This document shows positions 31,459 through 51,008 of a stretch of DNA of 64,000 nt, piece after piece. Position numbers and translations under genes: made by a program. The notes below the pieces were generated by a model. The model was not told where the DNA came from. It worked only from the letters and a program-made list of their open reading frames with translations, and made no database searches. The stretch's first letter is position 1, and every line of letters begins with the position of its first letter. The stretch comes from a virus. Its lineage: Duplodnaviria; Caudoviricetes. The stretch spans positions 32,001 to 96,000 of the IMG/VR virus record IMGVR_UViG_3300038499_000016. One strand, given 5' to 3'.

Positions 31459-32073
31459 TCACCGCCATGATACTTTTCTTGGGGATATCGCTTCCATTGA
31501 ACTTTCTATATTTCTTTGAAAGATACACATAGAATCATGGATTCCAGGCCAACAAAGAAGCGAAATATACTCTTTTACAGACCATTCTTTTTCCAAGAGA
31601 TCAAAAAAGGCATCATCCGCAGTACATCCACCTGCACTCTCTCCTACAAAAATGAAATACTTCCCTTTGTATTCTTTCAAGGCCTCAGTTATCCAAGATT
31701 CCCCCAGAGTTGGCCAACTAACAAAAAGAGTCCGGTCAGGATACTTCCTAACCGCATCAATAGCCGAAAGGGCTTCTACATGGGTCCATATTTTAGAAAA
31801 CTCATACTGATTACTCATGGGCTCAGGACTGATATCGGTCGCAATGACATCGATGGTCTTTTTCCGCATCTCGTAAGCCCAGTAGCCTGTCCCTGCTCCT
31901 ACTTCCAACAACGGGTTGTACAATCTGATTTTATCCAAGGACTCTTCGGTAGGTATAGAAAAGCTGTGCGTTTTTACGGTTGTTTGCCGATGGTTCCAAC
32001 AATTAAAAATAAGACTGCTGTCAGTGTAGGAGTTTACCCCTAGTTTAGAGGCGAACTCTTCAAGTTCCGTCAT
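31459..32073 (-). CDS. SAM methyltransferase-like protein
   Basis: LLEVGAGTGYWA, VIATD, SWP, FVGE..GCT. Confidence 0.75.
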   Translation of the reverse strand: MTELEEFASKLGVNSYTDSSLIFNCWNHRQTTVKTHSFSIPTEESLDKIRLYNPLLEVGAGTGYWAYEMRKKTIDVIATDISPEPMSNQYEFSKIWTHVEALSAIDAVRKYPDRTLFVSWPTLGESWITEALKEYKGKYFIFVGESAGGCTADDAFFDLLEKEWSVKEYISLLCWPGIHDSMCIFQRNIESSMEAISPRKVSWR

Positions 32074-35512: not shown

Positions 35513-35809
35513 CTATTGACTGTATTCTTTGTTCTCGTACGGACAAAGTTTGCTTGACGGACATTCATCACAATAACCTGGGTTCTTATCTCCAGTTATG
35601 CAACCCCAAGGACTCTTATCATTTATATCCCAATCTCGATCTACCGGGACATGCTGAGCAGCCAAAGTACACAACTTTTGCAATTCAGCCCTGTCAATGA
35701 CAATCTTTTTCTTATCAGTACATGTTATCTGATCATACTCTTCTTTTGATAATAGGTACTGCATTTTATCCCTTCCCGACACGATTTTTTCTTCGTCCCA
35801 CGCCTTCAA
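35513..35809 (-). CDS. Hypothetical protein
   Basis: PWGC...YCDECP...CP. Confidence 0.6.
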   Translation of the reverse strand: MKAWDEEKIVSGRDKMQYLLSKEEYDQITCTDKKKIVIDRAELQKLCTLAAQHVPVDRDWDINDKSPWGCITGDKNPGYCDECPSSKLCPYENKEYSQ

Positions 35810-37131
35810 TCAGTGCCCATTGAATCCTTCATGTTATGTTTTGGTCGGATCCGTTCCAAAATATCTGCGGTAGGCTCGATGCAAGCCTCTATGACTCTCG
35901 CATCTTTATAAGCATCAGGAGCCTCATCCAGAGTACCCATCCCCACCGAAGTCGAATAGATACCCTCCATCTGTTTCTTGAAAGTATCGAGGTCCACTCG
36001 TTTCTTAGCTTGGGCCCGACTCATGATGCGCCCCGCTCCATGAGGAGCCGAACAGTTCCAATCTGGATTAGACTTACCAGTACACAATAAAATGCCATCT
36101 CGCATGTTGAAAGGTAGCAAGAAGCGCTCTCCAGCATAGGCTCGGATAGCACCCTTCCTGATTATAAAGTCCCGAAAGTCAATGAAATTATGAACCGTCT
36201 CAATCTCATTAACAGGATCTTTTACATTCAGTATGTCCAAGATGATGCGGAGCATGTATTCCCTGTTCACCTCTGCATACGTCTGAGCGAAAATCATATC
36301 TGAAAGGTATCCCTGAGCATCATCTCCTTCCAACCACCGTAGATCATCCGGGCAATCATAAGAAGAATGCTTGACTTCTTCGTTTTTCAAGGCCTTTATC
36401 CGGTGATACAACTCTTCACCTTTATATTCAGCCTTGAGTTTAGCCAGAGCCTCCCTGTGCTCTTCTTTGCTCATGCGATTGACCCTACTGACAGCTAGAG
36501 TCTGCCAGAAATTGCAGATTTTCAGCCCAAAATTACGAGACCCCGAGTGTATCGTGACCCAGTACTCTCCTTTGTCGGATTGACCTATCTCAATAAAATG
36601 ATTACCTCCACCGAGACTGGCAATGCTTTTTATTGCACGGCCTAGATCCATGCCTATATCACGGCACTTCTGTTCGAACCAACCCATATCGTATCTGACG
36701 ACACCGAACCGGACTCCAAATTCCTTCTCGTATGCCTGTGCAAAATGCTCCGCCAAAACATTTGCTCTGTGCCAAGGAAATTCCCGCTCAATATCTAGGA
36801 CGGATCTATCGTGAACATTCATTCCAAAAGGTATCTGTTTACGGATACGATGATCCAGCACCTCTAAGGAGAGAAATAAAGACGACCCAATGTTCACGGA
36901 CCGAAGTCCACACCCTATATCGACCCCGATAACAGTAGGGATCAACTTATCGGCCATCTTCATCGTGAACCCAATTACTGACCCCTTCCCAGCATGAACA
37001 TCGCTCATGATGGCAATGGGATTAGTAAAAGCAATATGATTCACGAAACCTTGTATCTGACTCGTAGCAGTGTCTTCTACTTGGTCGATCATGACCTTCG
37101 CAGTTGTGTACTTACCAGAAATTGTGATCAT
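35806..37131 (-). CDS. rtcB: RtcB family 3'-phosphate/5'-OH RNA ligase
   Basis: DVHAG, GVDIGCG, SLGGGNHFIE, HSGSR, HN, RKGA, HGAGR, DEAPDAYK. Confidence 0.96.
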   Translation of the reverse strand: MITISGKYTTAKVMIDQVEDTATSQIQGFVNHIAFTNPIAIMSDVHAGKGSVIGFTMKMADKLIPTVIGVDIGCGLRSVNIGSSLFLSLEVLDHRIRKQIPFGMNVHDRSVLDIEREFPWHRANVLAEHFAQAYEKEFGVRFGVVRYDMGWFEQKCRDIGMDLGRAIKSIASLGGGNHFIEIGQSDKGEYWVTIHSGSRNFGLKICNFWQTLAVSRVNRMSKEEHREALAKLKAEYKGEELYHRIKALKNEEVKHSSYDCPDDLRWLEGDDAQGYLSDMIFAQTYAEVNREYMLRIILDILNVKDPVNEIETVHNFIDFRDFIIRKGAIRAYAGERFLLPFNMRDGILLCTGKSNPDWNCSAPHGAGRIMSRAQAKKRVDLDTFKKQMEGIYSTSVGMGTLDEAPDAYKDARVIEACIEPTADILERIRPKHNMKDSMGTD

Positions 37132-37141
37132 ACTACATCTT

Positions 37142-38038
37142 TCAGACTAAAGTATTGTTGACCTGCAAAACACAAAGACCCAAAGATCTCCACATGTTCA
37201 CAACCTTAGTTCTGTCATCTATGACATAAACCGTGTGGTAGTAAGGTTCAATCTGACTCTTATAGATCTCCTTCTTGACCACGGCATCCGGCCGGCTATC
37301 CCCCGTCTTCCGCATCAATATAAGACGACAAGGAATTTGATAACGCCTAATCCACCTTTGCGTATCGTCGTAACACGAATCTTCCCGACCCGATACCATG
37401 AGAACCATGAACATCCGAGCGAGGTCCTTCACCAACAGAATGACATCTTCACAAGGCTTATCATTACTTACCTTGGTGAGATCATAGTAATCCCGAACAC
37501 CCTCATTAAGAGCTACCGTCCCATCAACATCCACTATGATGCACTTAGGCAAAGAAGTCTGAGCCAACCGTCTAGAAACCGTCACCACTGGCGGTATATA
37601 GGAGTCCCTTACTTCAACCCTTCTGTTCTTCAAATATCTATCGTAAGTACCCTCTATAGCATCTTGGGGCAGTGACTCAGGACGCTTGGAATTACGGATC
37701 AAAGCCTCCTTAAGCGTTACCTCAAAAAACTTCTCAAAAATACGCACATTCCCTATACGCTGAGCAATCGCACAGGCTTGATCGAAAATATCATCCCGTA
37801 GATTAGTATTGTCAGAAATGACATCATAGCCGCTTTTGAGAGCTTTCTCCGTGATTAAATCACATACCTCATTGATGAACTTCTCGTTCTTCGGAGAATG
37901 CCGGCCATTGTCCAACATCTTCCTCATAAGGTCCTTGTTGACCCTCTTATACTTATCAGGATACTTCCGCATCTCCTCCAGAGCCCACGTGCTCTTACCG
38001 GATGCCTGAAGCCCCTTAGCGAGTACATACGTACGCAT
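37142..38038 (-). CDS. pseT: T4 Pnkp-like polynucleotide 5'-kinase/3'-phosphatase
   Basis: GLQASGKST P-loop, DNTNL; HAD motifs DVDGT, SGR, DDR. Confidence 0.92.
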   Translation of the reverse strand: MRTYVLAKGLQASGKSTWALEEMRKYPDKYKRVNKDLMRKMLDNGRHSPKNEKFINEVCDLITEKALKSGYDVISDNTNLRDDIFDQACAIAQRIGNVRIFEKFFEVTLKEALIRNSKRPESLPQDAIEGTYDRYLKNRRVEVRDSYIPPVVTVSRRLAQTSLPKCIIVDVDGTVALNEGVRDYYDLTKVSNDKPCEDVILLVKDLARMFMVLMVSGREDSCYDDTQRWIRRYQIPCRLILMRKTGDSRPDAVVKKEIYKSQIEPYYHTVYVIDDRTKVVNMWRSLGLCVLQVNNTLV

Positions 38039-38042
38039 GAAG

Positions 38043-39113
38043 TCAACCTTTCAACCTATTGGGGACTACCGGCCTGCTCATCCAAAACTCGTCCGTCTGT
38101 ACATGACCCTTACGAACCACCTTCGCAGTACTCCTGCGATAGTCCTTATATGAGATCTGGTTGGCCACTCGAATAACGTAACCTTCCAAGTCATCCCTGG
38201 TCGTTTTCTTGTATCGCTCTATACTTTCATCTATGAGAGCTCTAGCGCTGTCCTGAGACCCCCACACGAACCTACAGAGGGTAGGTACTACCTGGAGTCC
38301 CAACAGCTCAGCATAGATGAGTGTATCGTCCCAAGACAGTGCGATGTTTCTTTCATCCCAGATGTTGAAGACGTAGAAATAATCCTTGAGTTCTTCATAG
38401 TGTATGGAATGGGTAGCGTACAGGTTCTCCCCACAGATTCTCCACCCCTCCGGAATATCTCGTGCAATCCGCCCATGAAGAGCCTTCACCCAACTCCTAG
38501 ACTCATGATGCTTGGAATCAGTAGACCGAGCATGAATATAGTCTGGATAGAGACTCGTATTCTCACCGTCCAACTTAGCCGTAACGACGACTTCTTTGCC
38601 TATAAAAAAATCAACATTTTCATGCTGCCGGTCATCATTCTGAAGATTAGGACTCCACGGGCAATGATACGTTCTCGGATATTTCACATATTTCAGAAAA
38701 ACACCAAGTAAATTGGCCTCTTTGAGTACCTTCTGGACCCGGTCTTCCCCAAACAATTCCCCCTTGATACGCATCCCTGATGGACGAACGATGTTGCCCC
38801 AATGGTCATACTTCTCATCGGCATAGAAATGATCGGGTAAAACTACCTCTGTGATGCCTGCAGCCTCTCGAAGCTCGTCACAAGACAATGTAGTGGTCTC
38901 AGCCGCGTAGTGATGGGTCGCACAGAGGGATACGCCATTCTGAAGGTAATACCCTCCAGAGTCACCCCAAAGGGACCTGTCTAAGAGATGGTGGGCAGCA
39001 GCGGGGCTCAACTCGCTCACGGCATCCGCAACAGGCTGCTTGCAGATAACACACTGCCCATGGTCCCTTTTGAAGACCTCGGTACGGAAGGTGTCTCTGG
39101 TGAGCAGCAACAT
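38043..39113 (-). CDS. ATP-dependent RNA ligase with an N-terminal HNH-like domain
   Basis: CVIC..AHH..NGVSLCATHH; KYPRTYH, KLDGEN, GEN, EGYVIR, KVVR. Confidence 0.88.
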   Translation of the reverse strand: MLLLTRDTFRTEVFKRDHGQCVICKQPVADAVSELSPAAAHHLLDRSLWGDSGGYYLQNGVSLCATHHYAAETTTLSCDELREAAGITEVVLPDHFYADEKYDHWGNIVRPSGMRIKGELFGEDRVQKVLKEANLLGVFLKYVKYPRTYHCPWSPNLQNDDRQHENVDFFIGKEVVVTAKLDGENTSLYPDYIHARSTDSKHHESRSWVKALHGRIARDIPEGWRICGENLYATHSIHYEELKDYFYVFNIWDERNIALSWDDTLIYAELLGLQVVPTLCRFVWGSQDSARALIDESIERYKKTTRDDLEGYVIRVANQISYKDYRRSTAKVVRKGHVQTDEFWMSRPVVPNRLKG

Positions 39114-39137
39114 AAATGATCCTCTACTTGATACATC

Positions 39138-39365
39138 TTAACCAATGTCCACGTGATTAGTATTATACACCCGAAACTCAAAAACAATCGTATTCAGAAC
39201 AAGTAGGGACACCTCAAACATGGGTTTGTGGTCCCCCTTGTAGAGGTCAAGATTAATTTTCAACTCAAAAAAAGTCACACCGTCCGAGAACTTACGCACA
39301 AAATTCAAAAAGTACAGTTCCAGGGCGTAGTTCTTAGATATTCTCGCATCGAATCCCATTTTCAA
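39138..39365 (-). CDS. Hypothetical protein
   Basis: Overlap with the upstream stop; D..GDH.P pattern. Confidence 0.55.
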   Translation of the reverse strand: MKMGFDARISKNYALELYFLNFVRKFSDGVTFFELKINLDLYKGDHKPMFEVSLLVLNTIVFEFRVYNTNHVDIG

Positions 39366-39637
39366 TCCTTTCGGAATTCATCACATATTCCTTTTCCACT
39401 CACTTCCCGCTTTCTAAAATTCCATGCTTCCCACGCCTCCCACTGTTTCTCAAAAGCGTCATCGTTTTCATCCGTTCTTGGTAGTGCGAGTTTCGGATAT
39501 GGAGGTACAGTACTACTGCCAAAACAACAGTAATATTCTGTTGGATCGTCGTAATGTCCAATACTCAGTATGCTCTTGCACACGGCACAACAATCTACCG
39601 GAAACCTATATGACTTTGGAACAAATTCTTTTTCCAC
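39362..39637 (-). CDS. Hypothetical Cys-containing protein
   Basis: CCAVC...ICDEF. Confidence 0.6.
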   Translation of the reverse strand: MEKEFVPKSYRFPVDCCAVCKSILSIGHYDDPTEYYCCFGSSTVPPYPKLALPRTDENDDAFEKQWEAWEAWNFRKREVSGKGICDEFRKD

Positions 39638-39715
39638 ATCTTCCTCTCTTATGACGAAACTTCACGCCCATTCTTTGTTGATGATATTCTCTATTCACGA
39701 ATAGAGAACGCACCA

Positions 39716-40330
39716 TCATACACAAGGACTCGAAGGCTTGCCTTTCCACTTGTTGTCACAGCTCTTAGCGCTCTCGCACGTCTTGCAATCTGTTGCTGTA
39801 AGCCGGCACTCAGAAACATTATCAATGAAGATCTTATCGAGGTCTACGAAAACCACATCAAATCCATCCATGACGTCAGGTAGTTCCCGATATACCTTCA
39901 AAACCGATTGCATCATAACGCCAGCCACCTTCTTTGAATCCAACCCCCCTACCCCAGTCCCCAAGGCCGTACAACCCATCCGCTTGACCCCATTAGCCGC
40001 GGCTAAGACTAGAGCCGACCCAAAAGCCCTTCCTACCACTTCAAGCGCTGTAGGCCCCCCAGGCTGCTTCATAGTCACGGCATGGACTATGTGCTTGATA
40101 CCCCGGGCCCCCAACTTACCTGGTATCGTGATATAGGCCTGCCCGGGCTTAGGATTCTGTAACCCACATACCAAGAAAGCATCCTTCTGGATCTCGTCTC
40201 CACCGGCCTTCCTAATAGCTCCGGCGATACCACGACCCATTGGGCCGACGCCATTAGCAGCCGATTGTATGCCGTCCAGCTTCAATTCCTCGATGAGGTC
40301 TATGAGGTTACCTACTCGTTTGGTGATCAT
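39716..40330 (-). CDS. Macro domain (ADP-ribose binding/hydrolase) protein
   Basis: AANGVGPMGRGIAGAI, IVHAV, ALGTGVGG. Confidence 0.92.
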   Translation of the reverse strand: MITKRVGNLIDLIEELKLDGIQSAANGVGPMGRGIAGAIRKAGGDEIQKDAFLVCGLQNPKPGQAYITIPGKLGARGIKHIVHAVTMKQPGGPTALEVVGRAFGSALVLAAANGVKRMGCTALGTGVGGLDSKKVAGVMMQSVLKVYRELPDVMDGFDVVFVDLDKIFIDNVSECRLTATDCKTCESAKSCDNKWKGKPSSPCV

Positions 40331-40556
40331 GATTTTTCCTATGAAAAATACCAGTTACAAAACTTCTGAATACACAGTACGCGAGCACACTGGGGCCACA
40401 AAAAAATGACAACAACAAAAAACCTAACCAACCCTTAAGATCCTCACGATCTCTATCCAATACGTCTTGTACTGCAAGCATTGTGATGAACAGGCCGGCG
40501 ATACCATAACAAATTGGAACCAACCACCAAGGATTCATTTCGCCTCCAACAGACAC
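40308..40556 (-). CDS. Small two-TM membrane protein
   Basis: Two hydrophobic segments; likely start at 40538 after GGAGG. Confidence 0.55.
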   Translation of the reverse strand: MSVGGEMNPWWLVPICYGIAGLFITMLAVQDVLDRDREDLKGWLGFLLLSFFCGPSVLAYCVFRSFVTGIFHRKNHDHQTSR

Positions 40557-41002
40557 AAAAATCCCGTATCCTTCAAAGAACGGTCAATGTCCGTAAGTTT
40601 CTCTGTCAATTTCTTTAGAGCATCCAGACCGTTCATCTCCACCCACAGCCCGTACTTGAACTTCTTTCCATTGGGCAGCATAGGAACGATTGAATAGCCT
40701 TCTGGAACCTTACACGACGGCTCACAATCAGCAAAAAAAGACAGGGGAAGACCTATCAAACAAACTCTGCTCGATAGCTCTCTCAAGAGATCCTCAATAT
40801 CAGCAAGAGTCATGTTGTAGGTCGTCATCGCTTCCATGATATACTGCCCTGCAATCATGGCATTGTTGTACTCTGGAAGATCTATGATTTGATGCATCCT
40901 TCCAAAATAGCCTAAAACATCTTTAGTCATGCCCTTACTCCCGACAGAAAATTTGAGAACAGGCCATGCATCACGCTCCAGGACTTTTAGACAACTTTTC
41001 AA
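40535..41002 (-). CDS. Hypothetical protein
   Basis: ORF track, overlaps neighbours. Confidence 0.55.
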   Translation of the reverse strand: MKSCLKVLERDAWPVLKFSVGSKGMTKDVLGYFGRMHQIIDLPEYNNAMIAGQYIMEAMTTYNMTLADIEDLLRELSSRVCLIGLPLSFFADCEPSCKVPEGYSIVPMLPNGKKFKYGLWVEMNGLDALKKLTEKLTDIDRSLKDTGFLCLLEAK

Positions 41003-42980
41003 GAATCATGTCAAACTTCTTGTTCACGTCAGACAACGAAATATACTCCTCACTCCGAGCCTCCTGTACTCCGCTTTCACTATAGTGCTCCTCAAGTATC
41101 TCAAGCAACAACTTCTTCAAAGCCCCCGCCTGAGGCAGCGGAGGTAATTTACACTTAGTAGCCAGATCCGAGACGTGATCCATCCGCCTCTGAAACTCCC
41201 GATCAAACCGGTCAAAATCCCCCCACTCCCCAGCACGCATCAACTTACTTTCTTCCTTACTCCTCATCAGATCTATGTCACCTACCGTTAGGATCTGTTC
41301 CAGTTGGTCAAGAAGCCGTAGAGTATGGTAAGCCATTTTACAGTTTCCTTGTACAGCTATTTTTCCATCCAATCTTGTTATCAAAGTTCCATTAGGAACT
41401 TCAAAACAAACAACGTTACCAGAATATTTTTTTACACAGCCTCCACGCAGCTTCAATTTTTTGGTGTGTGTAATTCCTGTGGTATTAAAACAAACGGCTT
41501 TGGGTCTTGACTTTTTTCTCACGTTAACTAAAGTTTGATAAATCAACCCTGTTCTTTCTACCCCCTTAGAATCAACATATATTGAACTGTAGGGACCCAT
41601 AATATTTGAATCATATCCAGATAGTAAGGCTAATATTTGATACAAATCACTAAGATTTTTTACAGTAGAGTAATATATTTCTTGCCTATAGATTTTTTTC
41701 TCAGTACCATCCCCGAGAAACATGCCATATCGCATAGCTTCTGCCTCCATCACCGACATATCCAAAACCCATGCAGGATATTTCTTATTTTTACCTGCTC
41801 CAAAATCTTTGTATATACTTTTTATCATGGGTTTTTTGTGTGTTATCCACACTGTTTCTACAACAGGAATTTTACTAAAAGTACCGTTTGGCTTGTGTGT
41901 ATAGGTATACTCCCTTAGACCAAACTTACTTTTTACCTTACGCATGAAATCAAAAACTTCTTTCTTGCCCATCCTGGTTTGTGAAAATCTTAAAGCTCTG
42001 ACCCTAGATGTCCTGTAAGACACAGACCCTTCCGATAAATATAACCCTATCAACACTAATTCATCTAGATCTTTTCCCAGCCCTTTTCTATTATTATTAA
42101 CAGAAGTTCTTAAATGATACCAACTTCTTTTATTATCAGATAAGTCTTTAATAGGACTTAAATTCCAATAACAATCTTTGTCTGAATATTGAAGAGTTCT
42201 AGATCGGTGGCAAGGAGAATTTAAAATATTGTGCCCTCCTGTTACAGAAAATTTAGTGAAATTGTTTTCAATGTTGTATATTTTATAAATGCCCTTTTTT
42301 ATTATTCTTGATAAAGGTCTTTGAAAATCTATGTTCCCTGTAACTACATCTACAGTAGCTAATTTTTCTGATGTTATGTCCCCGTAGAGTTTCCAACCAG
42401 AATTGGTTAAAAATTCTGTACTATCTATGTAACAGTCAAAACCATGTTTCTCAATCAAAGCCTTCCGATCTTCTGTCTCTGGATTCCTCTGCCGGATACG
42501 ATGCATCTGCCCATTCGCATACCCCTTAAAGGCATGAAATGTCTTCATGGATATGAAAAGCCTTCTGTTATCTCTAAGGAACCATCCCATTTTGGTCCCA
42601 ACAGTGACCAATTCCCTACGCACAAACAGACACTCGATCAGATTAGGTGACCCCTTGAGACCAGCATGTATAAAGAACTCAATAAGGGATACCCACTCAG
42701 CCTCAAAGGGCTTATCCCCTATCATTATCTTTTTCTTACCCTTGAGCTCCTTTCTGCGGAAATCTGGAAGCGCATCAAACCCCAGCACAAAGCCATACTT
42801 CTGAGGAAACAAATGCTCATGCTTGGGAAGGACTATGGCAAGAATGTCATAATCAGATTTTTCCGTAGAACATCCATAAGCACGCGATCCTACTATAGTC
42901 TCCAAGAGCAGATTGTCCACAAGCCACTGCTCATGCTTCTGGAACTTACCGTTCTGAGCATACCACTGGGTATAGTTCAC
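40971..42980 (-). CDS. Pol-beta superfamily nucleotidyltransferase (RlaP-like), intein-containing
   Basis: GSRAYG..SDYD, PNLIE, GYA; splicing restores GFD-CKMAYH..RL (cf. GYDxKxAYH). Confidence 0.85.
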   Translation of the reverse strand: MNYTQWYAQNGKFQKHEQWLVDNLLLETIVGSRAYGCSTEKSDYDILAIVLPKHEHLFPQKYGFVLGFDALPDFRRKELKGKKKIMIGDKPFEAEWVSLIEFFIHAGLKGSPNLIECLFVRRELVTVGTKMGWFLRDNRRLFISMKTFHAFKGYANGQMHRIRQRNPETEDRKALIEKHGFDCYIDSTEFLTNSGWKLYGDITSEKLATVDVVTGNIDFQRPLSRIIKKGIYKIYNIENNFTKFSVTGGHNILNSPCHRSRTLQYSDKDCYWNLSPIKDLSDNKRSWYHLRTSVNNNRKGLGKDLDELVLIGLYLSEGSVSYRTSRVRALRFSQTRMGKKEVFDFMRKVKSKFGLREYTYTHKPNGTFSKIPVVETVWITHKKPMIKSIYKDFGAGKNKKYPAWVLDMSVMEAEAMRYGMFLGDGTEKKIYRQEIYYSTVKNLSDLYQILALLSGYDSNIMGPYSSIYVDSKGVERTGLIYQTLVNVRKKSRPKAVCFNTTGITHTKKLKLRGGCVKKYSGNVVCFEVPNGTLITRLDGKIAVQGNCKMAYHTLRLLDQLEQILTVGDIDLMRSKEESKLMRAGEWGDFDRFDREFQRRMDHVSDLATKCKLPPLPQAGALKKLLLEILEEHYSESGVQEARSEEYISLSDVNKKFDMILEKLSKSPGA
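41343..42434 (-). mobile_element. Intein (364 aa) with LAGLIDADG homing endonuclease
   Basis: Starts CYIDSTEFLT..GW; block B TGGH; LIGLYLSEGS and GMFLGDG; ends CFEVPNG...VQGN followed by Cys; visibly AT-richer than its exteins. Confidence 0.92.
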
Positions 42981-43324: not shown

Positions 43325-43963
43325 CTAAGCAGTCCGCCTATTCAAAGCACGGCCCTCAAGATACAACTGGTCATTGATGGCAAGCGGGGTCATTCCATAC
43401 TTATCGGCAAGGCGATTAGTAAGCACCATCAACCGAACATGGTCCTGGAAGGAAGGTTTGCCTTCATCCACCTTAGGCTCAAATCCATCAATTGCATTCA
43501 CAGCCGCTATGACATGACTGCCAAACGGCAACATCCCGCGGTAATGGATAGCCACCTTATAATGATGGTGCAAAAACATCTTAAGGGCAAAGAGCAACGA
43601 AAAACACGGTTCCAGACTAGCAAACTCCTCAAGAATCCCAACCACAGGATATTCTATGGTTGCAAGCTCATATGCCCTATTGTTATGACCCAATACTGTA
43701 AAACGTTTCTTCAGAACTCCTGCGTCCTGAGGCACATAACCAAGGTCAGGACTTCCAAACTTCTTCTGCAAAAAAACAGGAGCATCCTCATAGGTCACAC
43801 GAGCATCAAGACAGGCATAAAACCTCTCCGAAAAAACTCTGTCCTTATCCTTACTACCCAACGAGTTCTTGGGTTGAGAAAGATAGTGGAGAAGAGTAGA
43901 GCCAACCGGAATCTGTTGAAAGGCAAGATCTAGAGAAGCGGCAGCAATAATGGAGACGCGCAT
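43325..43963 (-). CDS. Hypothetical protein
   Basis: GGAGGA RBS; own promoter and terminator. Confidence 0.75.
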   Translation of the reverse strand: MRVSIIAAASLDLAFQQIPVGSTLLHYLSQPKNSLGSKDKDRVFSERFYACLDARVTYEDAPVFLQKKFGSPDLGYVPQDAGVLKKRFTVLGHNNRAYELATIEYPVVGILEEFASLEPCFSLLFALKMFLHHHYKVAIHYRGMLPFGSHVIAAVNAIDGFEPKVDEGKPSFQDHVRLMVLTNRLADKYGMTPLAINDQLYLEGRALNRRTA

Positions 43964-44049: not shown

Positions 44050-44078
44050 AGTATACACCAAGAAAAGAATAATGTCAA
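44050..44078 (-). promoter_or_regulatory. Sigma70 promoter TTGACA-N17-TATACT
   Basis: -35 at 44073-44078, -10 at 44050-44055, 17-nt spacer. Confidence 0.8.
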
Positions 44079-44114
44079 ATAAAAAGGCCCAGGAGAATAC
44101 CCATCCCCTGGACC
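44077..44114 (-). terminator. Intrinsic terminator ending the protein + ncRNA unit
   Basis: GGUCCAGGGGA/UCUCCUGGGCC stem with G.U pairs, then UUUUUAUUU. Confidence 0.85.
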
Positions 44115-44434
44115 CGTCTGTTATTACAATCGTATAATGATTGCTAACAATTGTTAAGTGTCTCCTGTCGTGACTTCTGTTGGTCAACATTATATCTCTG
44201 CTCTACCGCTGAGCTACAGACCCTCATAGTTCTCAATGAGTCATAAAGAACTGTGAGGGTCTGAGGGGATTTGAACCTCTGACCGAGAGTATTCCAACAG
44301 AATCGTCAAAGAGCACTTTGTTAAGTATGAGCATGGAACGGTAATAATGTAAGTCTTAACATGACATTCCCACTAGTTTCATCTCATGGACTTACCAAGT
44401 GGGTATGAGCATGAATATGAATATTTCCGTTCTT
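44077..44434 (-). ncRNA. ~350-nt structured ncRNA with a circularly permuted tRNA-like domain
   Basis: T-arm AGAGG-UUCAAAU-CCCCU precedes the acceptor-like hairpin CAGACCC/GGGUCUG and D-arm UAGCUCAGCGGUAGAGCA; enclosed by UUCUGUUGG/CCAACAGAA; repeat-rich 5' domain; no substantial ORF. Confidence 0.8.
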
Positions 44435-45199
44435 CTATTCTCCTTTGTTTATGTACTTGAATAATCGCTGGCTGATCCGGTTAGAAGGAACCACCTGCTC
44501 ATTGGCACGAGACCGAGCCTTCTTAATAGCCTCAATGAGCATATCCACACGTTCCAGAAGGGTACTCTTCTCAGCCGGCGAAATCAACCCGCTAAAGTAA
44601 GTCTGATTCCACGTTCCCACAATCACGTCCTCATTCACCAACTGCACCTGGGGAGGATGCTTATCAGTACCCGGATGCAGAACAAGCGGCCTAGATACCT
44701 TCCGGGTCCCCTGCCTGCGGGTCTGACCAGTCCTGTAGTACCCACTCCCCCGCTGCTCATCCGACTTCCAATCCTTGGCCGGATCAAGCGTCGGAATGGT
44801 ATCGTAGACCTTTCCCCGAATCAGTTCCAGAAGGTTCTCCATTTGAACAAGTGCCGCCACAGGCACAGCCTCTGCAAGGATCACCTGGGTCTCATCGTTC
44901 AAGACCACAATGTCTGCCACAGCCTGTGTGTTGGCCATTTCCTTCTGCAGAACCACATCAAACAACTTGGCGAGATGCTTCTGGAAATACTCCAGCTTAT
45001 CGCCAACCGTCGTGATAGGGGTGGGTTTCTCTTCTTCCGGACGTTCCACATCATCGGCCTTTAGCGGGTCCCATTCCTTGGCATGGGTGCTGAAGAGATG
45101 GGCCTTCTTCGTGAAAGTCCCGTGCGTCTCCTCAATGATCTTAGCTACGGTAGACCGAACGTCCTTCTCAGCTGCTACGAGCTCATGCAACTTTCCCAT
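44435..45199 (-). CDS. Uncharacterised 254-aa protein directly upstream of the ncRNA
   Basis: AAGGAGG RBS; KLHELVAAEK...KEMAN..A.ADI...PTLDP...W...TRK......TDKHPPQV....D..VG.W....FSG......RVD.L..AIKKAR..AN resembles, from memory and unverified, a widespread bacterial/phage family of unknown function. Confidence 0.9.
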   Translation of the reverse strand: MGKLHELVAAEKDVRSTVAKIIEETHGTFTKKAHLFSTHAKEWDPLKADDVERPEEEKPTPITTVGDKLEYFQKHLAKLFDVVLQKEMANTQAVADIVVLNDETQVILAEAVPVAALVQMENLLELIRGKVYDTIPTLDPAKDWKSDEQRGSGYYRTGQTRRQGTRKVSRPLVLHPGTDKHPPQVQLVNEDVIVGTWNQTYFSGLISPAEKSTLLERVDMLIEAIKKARSRANEQVVPSNRISQRLFKYINKGE

Positions 45200-45238: not shown

Positions 45239-45266
45239 AATATAATACACACACAGAAAAAATCAA
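45239..45266 (-). promoter_or_regulatory. Possible sigma70-like promoter for the 254-aa gene/ncRNA unit
   Basis: TTGATT-N16-TATATT; contains GTGTATTAT, similar to the sites at 43255 and 44050. Confidence 0.45.
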
Positions 45267-45475: not shown

Positions 45476-46351
45476 CTAGCCGCGTGACAGGACCACTCTG
45501 CAGAGCCCGAGCGGGTTGTGACACCCGATGCCCAGGTTCTCAAAGCAGCTGAATCCTATTACCCTGTTCTTGGGGTCATCTGCACTCAACACCGAAAGTT
45601 CCGTACGTACAGGAATACGTCCAAAGAACTCTGGCTCGCAGCACACATAGATGTACCCAGTCGGAACGCGCCTTGACACGATAACCTGGGCACCCCAAAC
45701 GGTGGCCATGAGACCGGTCTTCAGCAACACAGCCTGAGTCTCGATGTCCAAGACATCCCGACCCCATTTGCGTATGTCACTATAGTCAAGGGCATTACAG
45801 AACACGCGTGCAACCCTCAGGTCGTGGCGCTCAATACGGGCAAACGCATCGGCCAGATCAGCCGGTGTGAGAGGAGCAGTGGCCGGAATATCGGCGTTTG
45901 TCGCACCGATGTTGTCGAACCCAGCCGTTGCAACCGCATCGAGAACTTCGAAGACACGAGTGTCTTCTTCGGCCTGAATCTCCGCCTTCGCCAGGTCCTG
46001 GGCACGTTCGATAAGATCATACCGACGTTCCTTGATCTGGGTGAGCGGAATTTCGGGGTTGGAAGAGATTTCGAACAGCGGGAAAATCACCCTACGGGGC
46101 TTCGTGATGGCCAAAATGTTCTGACCTTCTTCACCCACGACATAGGCAGTCACTGCCGGGTCTTTGTCGTAGATAGGAAGCGCACCATCAGGCAGCTGCT
46201 CAACGAGAAACGTCTTGCGTCCAACAGATGTGTAGTCCCTCCTAAGGCGGAGGGGTTGAATCATGGACGCAGCCAACTTCGCTCTTCCTGAAGCCGTCTT
46301 CATGTACTCATCAATGATTTGGGCCTTCAGTTCATTACTAACTTCAGCCAT
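45476..46351 (-). CDS. Major capsid protein (HK97 fold)
   Basis: Spine-helix-like DLIERAQDLAKAEIQAEEDTRVF; LADAFARIE...VFCNALDY; WGAQVIVSRRVPTG; GGAGGTG RBS; follows protease, scaffold and decoration genes. Confidence 0.88.
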   Translation of the reverse strand: MAEVSNELKAQIIDEYMKTASGRAKLAASMIQPLRLRRDYTSVGRKTFLVEQLPDGALPIYDKDPAVTAYVVGEEGQNILAITKPRRVIFPLFEISSNPEIPLTQIKERRYDLIERAQDLAKAEIQAEEDTRVFEVLDAVATAGFDNIGATNADIPATAPLTPADLADAFARIERHDLRVARVFCNALDYSDIRKWGRDVLDIETQAVLLKTGLMATVWGAQVIVSRRVPTGYIYVCCEPEFFGRIPVRTELSVLSADDPKNRVIGFSCFENLGIGCHNPLGLCRVVLSRG

Positions 46352-46368
46352 GACTAACTCACCTCCTC

Positions 46369-46941
46369 TTAGATTTTGAGTTGAACGGTCATGTACGGAT
46401 CCGTACCGGCCGCCGGGGCCTTCAGAACGATACCGAGCAGCGTAGCATTATGCCGTGTCGTGTCCATTCCACCCGCATTGATCAAAAGACCGTTGCGAGA
46501 AGAATAAACCAGGTCTCCGGCCGTAAACGCTACCGCTGACGTACCATTACTGGCGAAGGTCTCGTAAATATCGGTGCTGAACACCGTTCCTGAACCATGT
46601 GCATACACAACTCTGTTCGAAGCAACCGCGGAACTTGACTCATACGGATTGCCCAATGCGTCATTGATTGCAATTCCTACAGCCTTATCAAAGGTTGAGG
46701 AGTTATCACCAGCGCACGGACCGATGAGACCATCTCCAGCGACAGCAACGACACTACCGGCCAGAATGCCCTTATTGGTCTTGGCAGTCAGGCGGCTGTT
46801 GTTCACCTTCTGGTTGTTCCCAACTCTGTTGTCCTGTGTCAAGCCTGCAGCAACGATCTGACCATACGAGTTGTAGGTCTGACGATACAGAACATTCATG
46901 TGGGTATCAGGTGATGGAAGATTTGAACCCATTCGACTCAC
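46369..46941 (-). CDS. Putative capsid decoration/cement protein
   Basis: Gly/Ala-rich beta protein (GSVVAV, AVGI, TDIYE, AGDLVY...GLL, LGIVLKAP) directly upstream of the MCP. Confidence 0.7.
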   Translation of the reverse strand: MSRMGSNLPSPDTHMNVLYRQTYNSYGQIVAAGLTQDNRVGNNQKVNNSRLTAKTNKGILAGSVVAVAGDGLIGPCAGDNSSTFDKAVGIAINDALGNPYESSSAVASNRVVYAHGSGTVFSTDIYETFASNGTSAVAFTAGDLVYSSRNGLLINAGGMDTTRHNATLLGIVLKAPAAGTDPYMTVQLKI

Positions 46942-47954: not shown

Positions 47955-50900
47955 CTACTTACGATATGCATCGAGCATATTCAGCCACACAAGTGATCTG
48001 CGGGCCTCTTCTTTTGATAGTTTCCTACCTACCGCATTTACTATCTCCCCTAAGAGCTCCACGGAACTTTTCTTATTTGTTCCGCCCAATTTAGCCACAG
48101 CTGCTTTTATGATTACTGAGAGTGGATTAGGACTTACACTATCCAGATAAGACAGGACCGCTAGGAAATCTCTTTTCCCATACCCATAATCAGCAAGTAC
48201 GGTAGGTTTATTGCTGGTCAGGAGTATGTGGGCCCCATACTTGAGCTTATTGAAAGCTTTCTCATCCAGATTACCTGTGGTCTTTCTCACAAATCGGTCC
48301 CATACCGTTTTTGTATTCCACAGATTTCTGTATACGCTTGCGGGCTTTATGATTGACTCATCGAGCGTCTCGAGCTCTTGAGGACGCTCTTCTTTTTCCG
48401 TAAAATCATCGGCTATCTCATCGCTGATTTGTTGAAGGATCCGCTTCTTGATCTGATCCTTCATCTTCCTCATATCATCGCCGGGTTCCTCTTCCTCAGG
48501 AAGTCCACCTTCCTCAGGAGCTTCTTCTGCTGGGGCTTCTGCTGGGGCTTCTGCTGGGGCTTCTGCTGGGGCTTCTGCTGGGGGCTCATCAGCAGGAGGT
48601 TCATCGGGCTTATCGGCAGGGGGTTTATCTTGAGCAATCAAATGAGCTGCAGCCTTCAGATAGTCCCCTTCTTTGGGCTGATAGGACTTCTTATCCAGAG
48701 CCGCCTCAATCTTGGATATGATATCAAGGGATGGTTCTACGGAACAACGACGTACTGCACCTACAAAGGCCGGATTCTTAACCCAAGATGCATCACAGAA
48801 CACGACACTCTCTGGGTCTGATTTATGCCCACAAAGCTCTGCAACCCTTCGCTGTACGCCATTATCATCATAGAAAAAATTATTCTTCTCATATTTCACA
48901 TGCTGGCATGCTTGGGTCTCATCAACAGATTTATTACCACACTTAGTGCATATGGAATATTGAATCTTGCAGTTATGGACTGCCATGTCATTAGCTACAT
49001 AGGAGTTATCGTCCCACACCTCAAAATTATAGACCCATCCTTCATAAGGAAGTTTCTCTATACTCTGAATAGGATGAAGCATCCACCCTAGATTATTATT
49101 AGCTTTCCACGTATTGAGTAATTTGCGCTTTTTATCATCATCAATATTTTGATACTTTTTCTGATACTTATACGGGAAGGCGTAATTGAGTTCATTTTCA
49201 ATGACATTCAAAGCCTGAAAATTAAGCTGGATCTGATGAGCATCTGAACGATACCCTTCGTAATGATTCACCACTTCAACACCATCAGCGGTCATTTTTC
49301 GTACATCTGTCTTATACAAAGATCCTTCAACATGATACATATTATGTATCATGCGGAGTCTGTTTAGAATAACACGGTATTGGTCAGCCAAGTGGCGTGA
49401 CCCCGTGGTATTCATATCACCAATAACCCATGTAGCTATAAGATGCCGCTGGATCGATGTATCCCAATACAACACCTCTTCAGGCATCCTCTTATCATTA
49501 AAGTATTCCCCACAATACTTAGAGAAGAATTCAGCAATATCCTCTCCTACAATCTTCACTGCTTTGGGGTATCTCAACACCGTAGCATTAGGAAAAGCCT
49601 TAGCGGAGAGTTCAGCAATTTCCTTATTAACCGTCTCGTACTCATGCTCTCCAAGGGAGAATTCTGCTCCTATTTTCTTTCGAGTTTTAGAAGCTTCTTT
49701 AAAACCAGGATCATTTTTTCGCCCATCACCACGTATCAAATTACGACGTATTTTGGCATTCACGGGAGCATCAGGAAACTGCATCCTATAGGTTTCTAAA
49801 TTCAACCCGTGCTTTGGAATATGAGTAGTGAGCTTGTTATAAAGATTCCCACAAACCTTACAACGAACTAAGTAATCATTCTCTTCACCCTGAAACACTA
49901 CATCTTTTACAAAAGATCCTTCCGCCAAGAAATATCCAATAAGTCGGGCTTTCTCAACGGTAGCATCATCAGATTTGATTATAGTCTGAGAAATAGGCGA
50001 AGAAACTATATCTCCTACCTGAAGATCTTGTGCATCCACCCACCCAAGATCAAGATTTTCCCTTATGGGGTTAGAATCTCGTAAAGCCTTGTACTCATCA
50101 ATAGAATAAGTTTGGGTATTGGGATTAACAACACGAGCATAATGACCCGTCAAAAATCTTGAATAAGCTGGATTGCCATCCATCATTTTGCTGTCATGGC
50201 CACACAGAGTAGTGGTAATCTTTCCCCCACAACCACAGGCGCACAAATGCTCTCTTTTGAAAGCCCAATAAGGATGTTCTGGGGTTACATATGTTATCTT
50301 GTAATCCCCCTCAACCTTAATAGCTAAGATGTCGCCCTTATACCAACGCTTTTGAGTATTCTTTACCGCTCGAATATTACCGGAATGGCTTAATACCATA
50401 TCTCCGGGATGGAGGACTTCAATAGCCGTCTTAGTCCCGTCCGAAAGAGTGATTTCCGTACCTTCAAGAAAACAGCCCATAGACAAAGTAGAAAGTTCCC
50501 CTGACTCAATCTTTCGTACCAAGTCCTCGTGCTTGCGATCTGTAGCTACAAGGATATCAACGTAATAGGTAGTAAGGTCTTCCCCGGAGGCGGTCTTCCC
50601 GATGGGTATTTCTCTTAAAACCGCATCAACCACTTTACCTTTTGACAGATTCTCTATCTGTACGTGTTCTACGAAATTATTACATCCTATGAATGATTGA
50701 TAGCATTGCTTGAGAAGGTCCTTATCCCAAGCATCGCCATTATTATTTACGAATTTTGAAAAGGAGGGATGGATGTAGTAGTTACTATTAGCATCTTTGG
50801 GATTTGCGAGCTCGGTCTGTACAGCGGCTATAATTGAGCAATGACTCAACAAGTATTTCCGAGGGTCATACTTAGCAATAACGGTCTTGGCGGTTTTCAT

Positions 50901-51008
50901 CCGGCAACGGCCGTCACTACAGGCGCTTTCATAGACCTTATTGACCCACTGGTCTCCGGTCATTCCTGTTTCTATGACGGCCGCATGGCCATAGCGCATC
51001 ATCGCCAT
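47955..51008 (-). CDS. Putative prohead maturation protease, intein-containing (516 aa after splicing)
   Basis: NNNGDAW, NFVEH, KGKVVDA, LSMG|C..CTKCG...C.H, SWVKNPAF; position in the head module. Confidence 0.75.
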   Translation of the reverse strand: MAMMRYGHAAVIETGMTGDQWVNKVYESACSDGRCRMKTAKTVIAKYDPRKYLLSHCSIIAAVQTELANPKDANSNYYIHPSFSKFVNNNGDAWDKDLLKQCYQSFIGCNNFVEHVQIENLSKGKVVDAVLREIPIGKTASGEDLTTYYVDILVATDRKHEDLVRKIESGELSTLSMGCFLEGTEITLSDGTKTAIEVLHPGDMVLSHSGNIRAVKNTQKRWYKGDILAIKVEGDYKITYVTPEHPYWAFKREHLCACGCGGKITTTLCGHDSKMMDGNPAYSRFLTGHYARVVNPNTQTYSIDEYKALRDSNPIRENLDLGWVDAQDLQVGDIVSSPISQTIIKSDDATVEKARLIGYFLAEGSFVKDVVFQGEENDYLVRCKVCGNLYNKLTTHIPKHGLNLETYRMQFPDAPVNAKIRRNLIRGDGRKNDPGFKEASKTRKKIGAEFSLGEHEYETVNKEIAELSAKAFPNATVLRYPKAVKIVGEDIAEFFSKYCGEYFNDKRMPEEVLYWDTSIQRHLIATWVIGDMNTTGSRHLADQYRVILNRLRMIHNMYHVEGSLYKTDVRKMTADGVEVVNHYEGYRSDAHQIQLNFQALNVIENELNYAFPYKYQKKYQNIDDDKKRKLLNTWKANNNLGWMLHPIQSIEKLPYEGWVYNFEVWDDNSYVANDMAVHNCKIQYSICTKCGNKSVDETQACQHVKYEKNNFFYDDNGVQRRVAELCGHKSDPESVVFCDASWVKNPAFVGAVRRCSVEPSLDIISKIEAALDKKSYQPKEGDYLKAAAHLIAQDKPPADKPDEPPADEPPAEAPAEAPAEAPAEAPAEEAPEEGGLPEEEEPGDDMRKMKDQIKKRILQQISDEIADDFTEKEERPQELETLDESIIKPASVYRNLWNTKTVWDRFVRKTTGNLDEKAFNKLKYGAHILLTSNKPTVLADYGYGKRDFLAVLSYLDSVSPNPLSVIIKAAVAKLGGTNKKSSVELLGEIVNAVGRKLSKEEARRSLVWLNMLDAYRK
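48525..48583 (-). repeat. 12-bp tandem repeat, ~5 copies, encoding an (APAE)n linker
   Basis: TTCTGCTGGGGC repeated on the + strand. Confidence 0.95.
48972..50474 (-). mobile_element. Intein (501 aa) with a degenerate LAGLIDADG domain and zinc-finger inserts
   Basis: Starts CFLEGTEITL; block B VTPEHPY; LIGYFLAEGS; ends VYNFEV...AVHN followed by Cys. Confidence 0.93.

Follow-up and report, generated by a model that had tools for sequence, protein, structure and literature searches.

Bacterial Y RNAs of the YrlA type are built around a tRNA-like domain in circularly permuted order; its acceptor stem is closed and varies in length, an anticodon loop is lacking, and the tertiary contacts of a tRNA are present (Chen 2014, PMC4201824; Wang 2018, 10.1101/312249). 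The published criterion for a YrlA is a position within ∼4 kb, on the same strand, of a Ro60/Rsr (TROVE) gene, and a GNCGAA(N)G sequence near the YrlA 5' end is regarded as a putative Ro60 contact (PMC4201824). YrlA is besides a substrate of TruB and DusA (PMC4201824), and some jumbo phages encode TROVE proteins (PMC7824862). Here we describe an RNA of this design that accompanies another protein. It is encoded on the minus strand of a stretch of 64,000 nucleotides of viral DNA (Duplodnaviria; Caudoviricetes), namely positions 32,001 to 96,000 of the IMG/VR record IMGVR_UViG_3300038499_000016, hereafter the window, and it lies behind a gene for a protein of the DUF7873 family. Positions 44085-44434 of the window constitute a structured non-coding RNA of ∼350 nt, whose core is a YrlA-type tRNA mimic on a stalk, and which is almost certainly a real member of an RNA family linked to DUF7873.

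Two-piece transfer-messenger RNAs (tmRNAs), which arise from permuted ssrA genes in alpha- and beta-proteobacteria and in cyanobacteria, have a removable linker and a CCA end. Besides, Burroughs and Aravind reportedly proposed in 2016 that a Ro-independent tRNA-like RNA operates together with SPFH/Band-7 proteins in RNA-repair systems.

Architecture of the RNA

An original prediction, made from the letters of the window, had placed on the minus strand, in this order, a variable (V) loop, a T arm, the 3' acceptor strand, an insert, the 5' acceptor strand and a D arm. We read all of these parts to the base where they had been placed (Table 1), and the overall reading, a permuted tRNA-like domain with a closed acceptor and no anticodon loop, equals the published description of YrlA. 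The 33-nt insert is likewise present in the sequence and lengthens the acceptor helix, which thereby counts 17 pairs and contains a single C·A mismatch; no CCA is encoded, and the T stem contains one A·C mismatch. Where the anticodon loop would sit, the minimum free energy (MFE) fold lets the stalk run on, in agreement with the stem that had been proposed to replace the anticodon arm.

The MFE of the core is -61.5 kcal/mol, compared with -41.4 ± 4.1 for shuffled sequences (z = -4.86), with stalk and acceptor hairpin both recovered, and the wider interval 44080-44440 (z = -5.26) folds into a 5' domain, the head on its stalk, a small hairpin and a terminator. A canonical or permuted tRNA gene was considered and rejected, as there is no anticodon stem-loop, ARAGORN reported 0 tRNA and 0 tmRNA genes in the 64-kb window, and the Rfam tRNA model RF00005 had no match in the whole 108-kb record.

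Conservation of the fold

Covariation was measured on a MAFFT alignment that had not been fitted to any structure. Standard pairs filled 94.2% of the cells (65% after shuffling), and the covariation score reached 0.772 as against 0.204 for shuffled alignments; none of 500 shuffles scored as high, and registers slid by 1-3 columns gave at most 0.215. Compensatory changes were present at 15 of 21 pairs, comprising all eight of the acceptor, all four of the closing stem and three of the T stem's five, and the D stem was nearly invariant. The Levitt pair 15:48 was G15:C48 in 51 copies and A15:U48 in 16, other combinations accounting for four, and U8, A14, the GG of the D loop and the T loop UUCRANU were conserved family-wide. 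Together, the covariation of the helices and of the Levitt pair and the conserved elbow indicate that the RNA has been selected to fold into the L-shape of a tRNA. The original prediction had expected an intact D/T elbow and had named missing covariation among homologues as the outcome that would speak against it; the elbow nucleotides are kept, and the covariation is strong and extends to the Levitt pair. The window copy itself shows the family traits of a 7-bp acceptor, a 5-bp T stem, the elbow nucleotides and the Levitt pair.

Outside the head, the stalk flanks of the relatives pair better than shuffled sequences (median z -2.3, with 64% below -2), and the 3' strand of their internal loop carries a semi-conserved ...YU(G/A)A motif. 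We also considered a split anticodon loop, given that one clade has AUUAG/AUCAG after the closing stem, and rejected it, there being no consistent U33 register.

Linkage to DUF7873

In metagenomic phage contigs, where DUF7873 homologues are many, the gene was followed in each contig examined by a gene-free gap of ∼500 nt, and these gaps hold the same RNA shape with differing stem sequences. A single DUF7873 protein used as query against viral contigs had returned nothing, the alignment-based search being the one that succeeded, and blastn with the RNA against GenBank phages gave no match. From 14 RNA copies aligned with MAFFT we built a covariance model, R1, which is to be read with the caution that junctions between tandem tRNA genes score up to ∼45 bits; only matches in the expected position were counted, and weak matches inside tRNA arrays were not taken as members. 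Membership of the DUF7873-linked family was assigned to RNAs at most ∼1 kb downstream of DUF7873 on the same strand, which is where the window copy lies.

With R1, the RNA was detected no more than 1.2 kb downstream of DUF7873, on the same strand, at 79 of 80 IMG/VR loci, the sole miss having 122 bases of sequence left. For genomes of bacterial species, R1 recovered it at E ≤ 1e-6 from 65 of 80 loci. The bacterial loci include Actinomycetota, Planctomycetota, Acidobacteriota, Bacteroidota and Abditibacteriota, and no other protein-coding neighbour is conserved among them. The window copy scores 88.5 bits, a value to which its presence in the model seed contributes, and relatives outside the seed gave 66-78 bits. 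A rough tally puts the loci with more than one head at 21 of 79 for viruses and 36 of 65 for bacteria; R1 found no second head in the window. DUF7873 itself is carried by at least 582 bacterial species genomes. Thus, the DUF7873-linked RNA family is large, occurs in phages as well as bacteria and sits directly downstream of DUF7873. The family was not found in Rfam or in the searchable literature.

Among cultured phages, the module of gene and RNA is present in Ralstonia phiRSL1, Rhizobium RHph_TM30, Gordonia Ronaldo, Klebsiella KpLz-2_45, Arthrobacter Talia1610 and Vibrio K481; in a seventh one, Pseudanabaena PA-SR01, the R1 match was no more than weak. In the six phages the RNA is unannotated or covered by small open reading frame (ORF) calls. 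In Vibrio K481 (L093:3408-3563) the coding sequence VPHK481_0059 is called on or beside the RNA, as are gp124 and gp125 in Gordonia Ronaldo (L086:3729-4198), and these small hypothetical coding sequences of the GenBank annotations are probably spurious.

The module often has tRNA genes close by. They occur within 2.5 kb at 42 of the 80 viral loci, all 130 of them on the DUF7873 strand, and a tRNA gene is present in the locus in 23 of the 80 bacterial cases. At locus L177, whose DUF7873 is 65% identical to that of the window, five tRNA genes stand right downstream of the RNA. One orphan copy was also found (L088:1000-1084, corresponding to G005:C1:159399-159483; 55 bits, 7-bp acceptor, loop with G-CCA), in the complete 209-kb genome of a phage whose DUF7873 gene is ∼30 kb away; the region around it is ORF-poor and has no tRNA genes.

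Comparison with YrlA and tmRNA

At gathering thresholds, Rfam assigned no family within the 64-kb window. The sole meaningful match at permissive thresholds was YrlA (RF02553), which aligned over model positions 1-114 of 114, stalk and internal loop included, with 32.5 bits against a gathering score of 69 (E = 1.4e-4 in a 2.5-kb search and 1.4e-6 for the record). The comparison with YrlA models suggested along with the original prediction hence gave a divided answer, in that the match is full-length and its score falls below the threshold. Six relatives scored 31.7-37.6 bits, and none of 20 related loci reached the gathering score.

The architecture is that of YrlA in the order of V loop, T arm, closed acceptor stem-loop and D arm, in the lack of an anticodon loop, in a basal stalk made of 5' and 3' parts, and in the elbow nucleotides, the Levitt pair and the variable acceptor length. 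On the other hand, the window RNA is longer, with its extra 5' and 3' domains, and most family members have N-CCA after a 7-bp acceptor. Its constant neighbour is DUF7873 instead of Ro60, for which no gene lies nearby or in complete relatives. In the window, the RNA is flanked by DUF7873, a 212-aa ORF and RlaP, with no TROVE gene within 4 kb. Neither the 108-kb record (23% complete) nor any of four complete relatives of 208-442 kb contains a TROVE gene; of five module-bearing bacterial genomes, three lack one and two have it unlinked and far off. Conversely, none of 14 control genomes, two of which have TROVE, carries DUF7873. Ro60/Rsr therefore plays no part in the linkage of the RNA to DUF7873. 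As regards the Ro contact, the window has GACGAU, one mismatch from GNCGAA, where L177 has UAAGAA and a further relative, L002, has GGAGAA; a conserved Ro-binding motif was rejected, because across 72 relatives it is about as frequent as expected by chance and it is lost within the window's own clade. The RNA is therefore YrlA-like in shape and stands outside the YrlA family as defined.

With two-piece tmRNA, the RNA shares the gene order of T arm, 3' acceptor strand, CCA, removable linker and 5' acceptor strand as well as a long helix in place of the anticodon arm; it differs in having the D arm of a full tRNA, and no tag reading frame was identified. Assignment as a two-piece tmRNA was rejected, given that ARAGORN found none, that the beta_tmRNA model scored 11.2 bits against a gathering score of 84 and that pair 3:70 is G:C here, and variable in the family, instead of G3:U70. 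The reported SPFH/Band-7 proposal has in common with our case the idea that, in an RNA-repair setting, a tRNA-like non-coding RNA works with a scaffold protein different from Ro60. However, DUF7873 showed no Band-7/SPFH match in Pfam and fold searches, and repair genes are not conserved next to the module, which stands by itself.

The acceptor end

The classic substrate of bacterial RNase P has U-1, G+1 and a 3' CCA, together with a 7-bp acceptor that stacks on a T stem of 5 bp. In the DUF7873-linked family, N-CCA directly follows the 7-nt 3' acceptor strand; this holds for ∼60 of the 75 distinct copies from phages and for 30 of the 67 from bacteria. U-1 is present in 44/72 phage and 50/66 bacterial copies and G+1 in 50/72 and 61/66, respectively, and the linker between the acceptor strands, which spans 5-109 nt across the family, is a short loop in most members. 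In the YrlA of Mycobacterium smegmatis, the only YrlA whose acceptor has 7 bp, RNase P cuts the acceptor loop and the CCA end is completed in vivo (Chen 2014, PMC4201824). That RNA has the same determinants as the family, where the 7-bp acceptor is combined with U-1, G+1 and N-CCA; unlike the window RNA it is bound by Rsr and adjoins rsr, and the window copy has no CCA, a helix instead of a loop and A-1:U73. Judging from the substrate features and the M. smegmatis precedent, most members may be opened to a two-piece RNA with a CCA end, and by this analogy we hold cleavage of the acceptor loop by RNase P to be quite possible for the family, if not quite probable; for the window copy it appears doubtful.

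The window copy belongs to a clade formed with L176, L177, L002/L005, L003 and L012, in which UC(A/G)C replaces N-CCA and a long helix extends the acceptor, pairing A-1 with U73. Long sealed acceptors with a missing CCA are restricted to this clade, most members having a short loop that starts with N-CCA; the window copy departs from the majority trait of N-CCA plus U-1, having UCAC and A-1. With UCAC in place of CCA and a sealing helix of 17 bp, the RNA of this clade probably remains a single piece. The original prediction had cautioned that the two mismatches might signal drift. For the T stem we regard this as lineage noise, since in L176, whose DUF7873 is 95% identical, CCUCU restores a perfect stem. 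The C·A, which lies near the fourth extension pair, is found again in L177, and in L002 two mismatches occupy that place. The clade also varies in its 5' domain, where a first, short-acceptor tRNA-like head is present in L003 and L012, its place being taken by another stem-loop in the window, L176, L177 and L002.

Glycine identity (G1:C72, C2:G71, G3:C70, U73) was tried and rejected, as no more than 14 of 66 bacterial copies and none of 72 phage copies had the full set, and acceptor sequences showed no uniform aminoacylation identity across the family.

The DUF7873 protein

The DUF7873 family comprises 2560 clusters at 50% identity and is uniform in length (∼250 aa), with H5, E6, D81, N90, K167, H181, K211, R229 and N233 as conserved residues. 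The AlphaFold2 model (predicted local distance difference test score 88.6) consists of four long helices and long beta hairpins. A Foldseek search against PDB gave no match at E ≤ 0.001, and a wide VIA-align comparison was uninformative, its top match (Z of 9.0) being a designed helical protein and the next ones generic helical bundles. A DUF7873 profile against PDB sequences found nothing better than E = 0.19, PHROGs returned nothing and NCBIfam only noise. A feature search of the ESM Atlas retrieved DUF7873 clusters only, and our search showed no longer, fused forms, which counts as weak evidence.

Transcription unit and genomic context

The record measures 108.7 kb at a CheckV completeness of 23%, so its source is probably a jumbo phage. 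The start of the RNA core at 44294 lies 141 nt past the end of the DUF7873 gene at 44435, on the same strand. A promoter-like site precedes the gene (Table 1), none was seen between gene and RNA in the window, and the terminator at 44115-44085 is the sole minus-strand terminator of the unit, no terminator-like site being found on that strand from 45239 to 44115. RNA and DUF7873 would hence be co-transcribed from a promoter near 45240.

Table 1. Coordinates of the RNA, its transcription unit and the RNA-repair cluster in the window
Feature	Position	Strand	Basis and remarks
Promoter-like site TTGATT-16-TATATT	45239..45266	minus	upstream of DUF7873 start; 9/12 consensus matches, consensus match only
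DUF7873 gene, 254 aa	44435..45199	minus	Pfam PF25283, 233.8 bits, E 3.1e-69
5' stem-loop domain closed by GAACGG/CCGUUC	44336..44432	minus	fold and alignments with relatives
tRNA-like core	44156-44318	minus	all parts placed as in the original prediction, to the base
Stalk strands overall	5' 44294-44318, 3' 44156-44183	minus	sequence and fold
Stalk outer pairing, AAGUGCUC with GAGACACUU	44311-44318 with 44156-44164	minus	sequence and MFE fold
Stalk inner pairing, UUCUGUUGG with CCAACAGAA	44294-44302 with 44175-44183	minus	sequence and MFE fold
Internal loop, 5' side AAUAC	44289-44293	minus	opposite 11-nt UAUAAUGUUGA; asymmetric
Closing stem, 5' strand UCUC (place of tRNA nucleotides 40-43)	44285-44288	minus	pairs with GAGA 44195-44198
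V loop GGUC, last base C48	44281-44284	minus	sequence reading
T arm AGAGG-UUCAAAU-CCCCU	44264-44280	minus	sequence reading
Acceptor 3' strand CAGACCC (positions 66-72)	44257-44263	minus	sequence and MFE fold
33-nt linker hairpin, sealing and lengthening the acceptor helix; begins UCAC	44224-44256	minus	sequence and fold
Acceptor 5' strand GGGUCUG (positions 1-7)	44217-44223	minus	sequence and fold
U8 A9	44215-44216	minus	sequence reading
D arm GCUC-AGCGGUA-GAGC	44200-44214	minus	sequence reading
A26	44199	minus	sequence reading
Closing stem, 3' strand GAGA	44195-44198	minus	pairs with UCUC; 4 bp
Internal loop, 3' side UAUAAUGUUGA, 11 nt	44184-44194	minus	sequence and fold
Small 3' hairpin between stalk and terminator	44120..44150	minus	fold; stem CAAUC/GAUUG kept in L176, L177
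Intrinsic terminator, 12-bp stem and U tract, loop motif GGGUAUUCUC	44085..44115	minus	ends unit; loop clade-conserved
RlaP nucleotidyltransferase, 669 aa, split by intein-like LAGLIDADG segment	40971-42980	minus	RNA-repair cluster
Macro domain protein	39716-40330	minus	RNA-repair cluster
ATP-dependent RNA ligase (Rnl), extra N-terminal region	38043-39113	minus	RNA-repair cluster
Pnkp kinase-phosphatase	37142-38038	minus	RNA-repair cluster
RtcB	35806-37131	minus	RNA-repair cluster

The loop motif GGGUAUUCUC of the terminator (GGGUAUCUUC in L177) is kept in L177, L002 and L003, where DUF7873 is only 59-65% identical, a degree of conservation unusual for a plain terminator. An exact 11-nt repeat, CAUGCUCAUAC, stands on both sides of the 5' domain (minus strand, 44403-44413 and 44325-44335); its second copy, preceded by CGUUC, is kept in L176 and recognisable in L177 and L002, and the repeat could be a processing or binding site. 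Within the 5' domain, a pseudoknot of GUAAGUC with GACUUAC was dropped, for only the near-identical L176 keeps it and covariation hence lends it no support.

Right behind the terminator, a near-consensus promoter (TTGACA-17-TATACT, 11/12; 44050-44078, minus strand) drives the 212-aa ORF (43325-43963), for which Pfam, PHROG and NCBIfam gave no match. A complete RNA-repair cluster (35806-42980, minus strand) begins ∼1.2 kb downstream of the RNA. On the other side, the DUF7873 gene is preceded by that of the major head protein (phrog_2522; 45476-46351), beyond which lie genes for a cement-like protein (46369-46941) and a 1017-aa head-module protein with Hint/intein splicing domains (47955-51008, minus strand), i.e. 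an intein-bearing structural or protease gene. In relatives (L003:12878-15508, L003:2028-3347, L177:3665-3765), we observed an 876-aa vault-like MVP-shoulder protein 2 kb downstream of the module and genes for CCA-adding enzymes 1.4-7 kb from it.

Discussion

We lean, by a narrow preference, towards the view that DUF7873 and the tRNA-mimic RNA form a Ro-independent unit that acts in tRNA-related biology. The RNA would take the L-shape of a tRNA and act jointly with DUF7873 as an RNA-protein unit, for which tRNA processing, repair, quality control and counter-defence are candidate roles, and the tRNA-shaped head might offer a handle to tRNA-recognising enzymes or to DUF7873 itself. Seen from the gene linkage, the chances that the two are functionally paired appear evenly balanced. 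In most members, RNase P may open the acceptor loop to yield a two-piece RNA with a CCA end, and in the window clade, with its sealed acceptor, the RNA may stay in one piece. We counted in favour of this view the tRNA genes near the module and the proximity of the RNA-repair cluster in the window. Spelled out in full, the proposal would be a Ro60-independent ribonucleoprotein in which RNase P exposes the CCA in most members, producing a two-piece, anticodon-less cofactor that DUF7873 uses, or by which it is regulated, in tRNA repair, in surveillance or in counter-defence, with the window clade as a natural sealed variant; in all these particulars together it is unlikely to hold. If it did, such a ribonucleoprotein would be spread over hundreds of species of bacteria and numerous large phages.

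Several observations weigh against a joint function of this kind. All evidence for pairing the RNA with DUF7873 is gene order, 15 of the 80 bacterial loci had no match at E ≤ 1e-6, and a genuine copy 30 kb from the DUF7873 gene, as at L088, implies that adjacency is not obligatory. The protein, with a median isoelectric point of 6.8, is near neutral, and fold and profile searches disclosed no recognisable RNA-binding or enzymatic fold. As for the acceptor, the pairing of A-1 with U73 and the absent CCA speak against RNase P opening in the window copy. Finally, at 23% completeness the record leaves room for a Ro60 gene elsewhere in the phage, or else in the host.

This last point leads to the possibility that the RNA is an ordinary YrlA Y RNA served by Ro60/Rsr from the unsequenced part of the phage or from the host, with DUF7873 a mere neighbour. 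The end-to-end alignment to the Rfam model, stalk and internal loop included, the 5' strand GACGAU, one base off the Ro motif, and the TROVE genes of some jumbo phages are what such an RNA would lead one to expect; yet we give this account little credence, as the scores are less than half of the gathering threshold in the window and six relatives with none of 20 relatives passing, TROVE is missing from the four complete relatives, from three of five bacterial genomes and from the 4 kb around the RNA, and the motif is lost even within the window's clade. In favour of a decayed tRNA duplication or a functionless junction of tandem tRNA genes one can cite the R1 scores of up to ∼45 bits for true tRNA-tRNA junctions and the two A·C mismatches of the window copy. 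However, neither the window nor the 108-kb record holds a tRNA gene, the acceptor strands pair with each other and covary, the place after DUF7873 is kept across phyla, and the relatives, with flanking proteins 35-95% identical, are not recent copies of one sequence, which leaves this explanation with next to no probability.

More deserving of consideration is a cis-acting element in the 3' untranslated region of the DUF7873 mRNA, in which the tRNA-like structure would set or protect the 3' end, e.g. through a cut by RNase P as in MALAT1/mascRNA, with no role in trans. The position downstream on the same strand, the single terminator closing a unit with no promoter-like site between gene and RNA, and the enrichment of RNase P determinants (U-1, G+1, 7-bp acceptor, CCA) all fit, and the element would still be surprising in its size: a 3'-end signal does not need ∼350 nt, several conserved domains and, in many cases, two heads. 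The conserved set of tRNA tertiary-interaction nucleotides, the orphan copy at L088, far from any DUF7873 gene, and the sealed, CCA-less acceptor of the window clade point in the same direction, and we therefore rate a purely cis-acting role as rather unlikely. Alternatively, the RNA might serve without DUF7873 as a tRNA decoy or sponge, titrating during infection a host factor that recognises elbow or acceptor, be it a defence nuclease or a modification or processing enzyme. Elbow and acceptor mimicry are intact, YrlA is known as a substrate of TruB and DusA (PMC4201824), and the RNA occurs in phage tRNA arrays and, in the window, beside an RNA-repair cluster, a typical counter-defence setting. 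Against this, bacterial chromosomes harbour the module just as often (DUF7873 is in the genomes of at least 582 species), the near-obligate link with DUF7873 would go unexplained, and an RNA that lacks the anticodon loop cannot lure anticodon nucleases; a decoy thus seems improbable to us.

So far, tRNA-headed Y RNAs have been described solely in partnership with Ro60, and what recognises their conserved elbow has yet to be identified (Wang 2018, 10.1101/312249). Here, the same design is tied to another protein, DUF7873, a highly conserved, large family with no known fold or function, and the module resides in bacterial chromosomes as well as in phage tRNA clusters. Its presence in cultured phages and cultured actinomycetes makes it directly testable, and for annotation it matters that small ORFs have been called over the RNA in some GenBank records. 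Should RNA and protein prove to be a functional unit, they would represent a second, Ro-independent class of tRNA-mimic ribonucleoproteins, and DUF7873 would gain a function.

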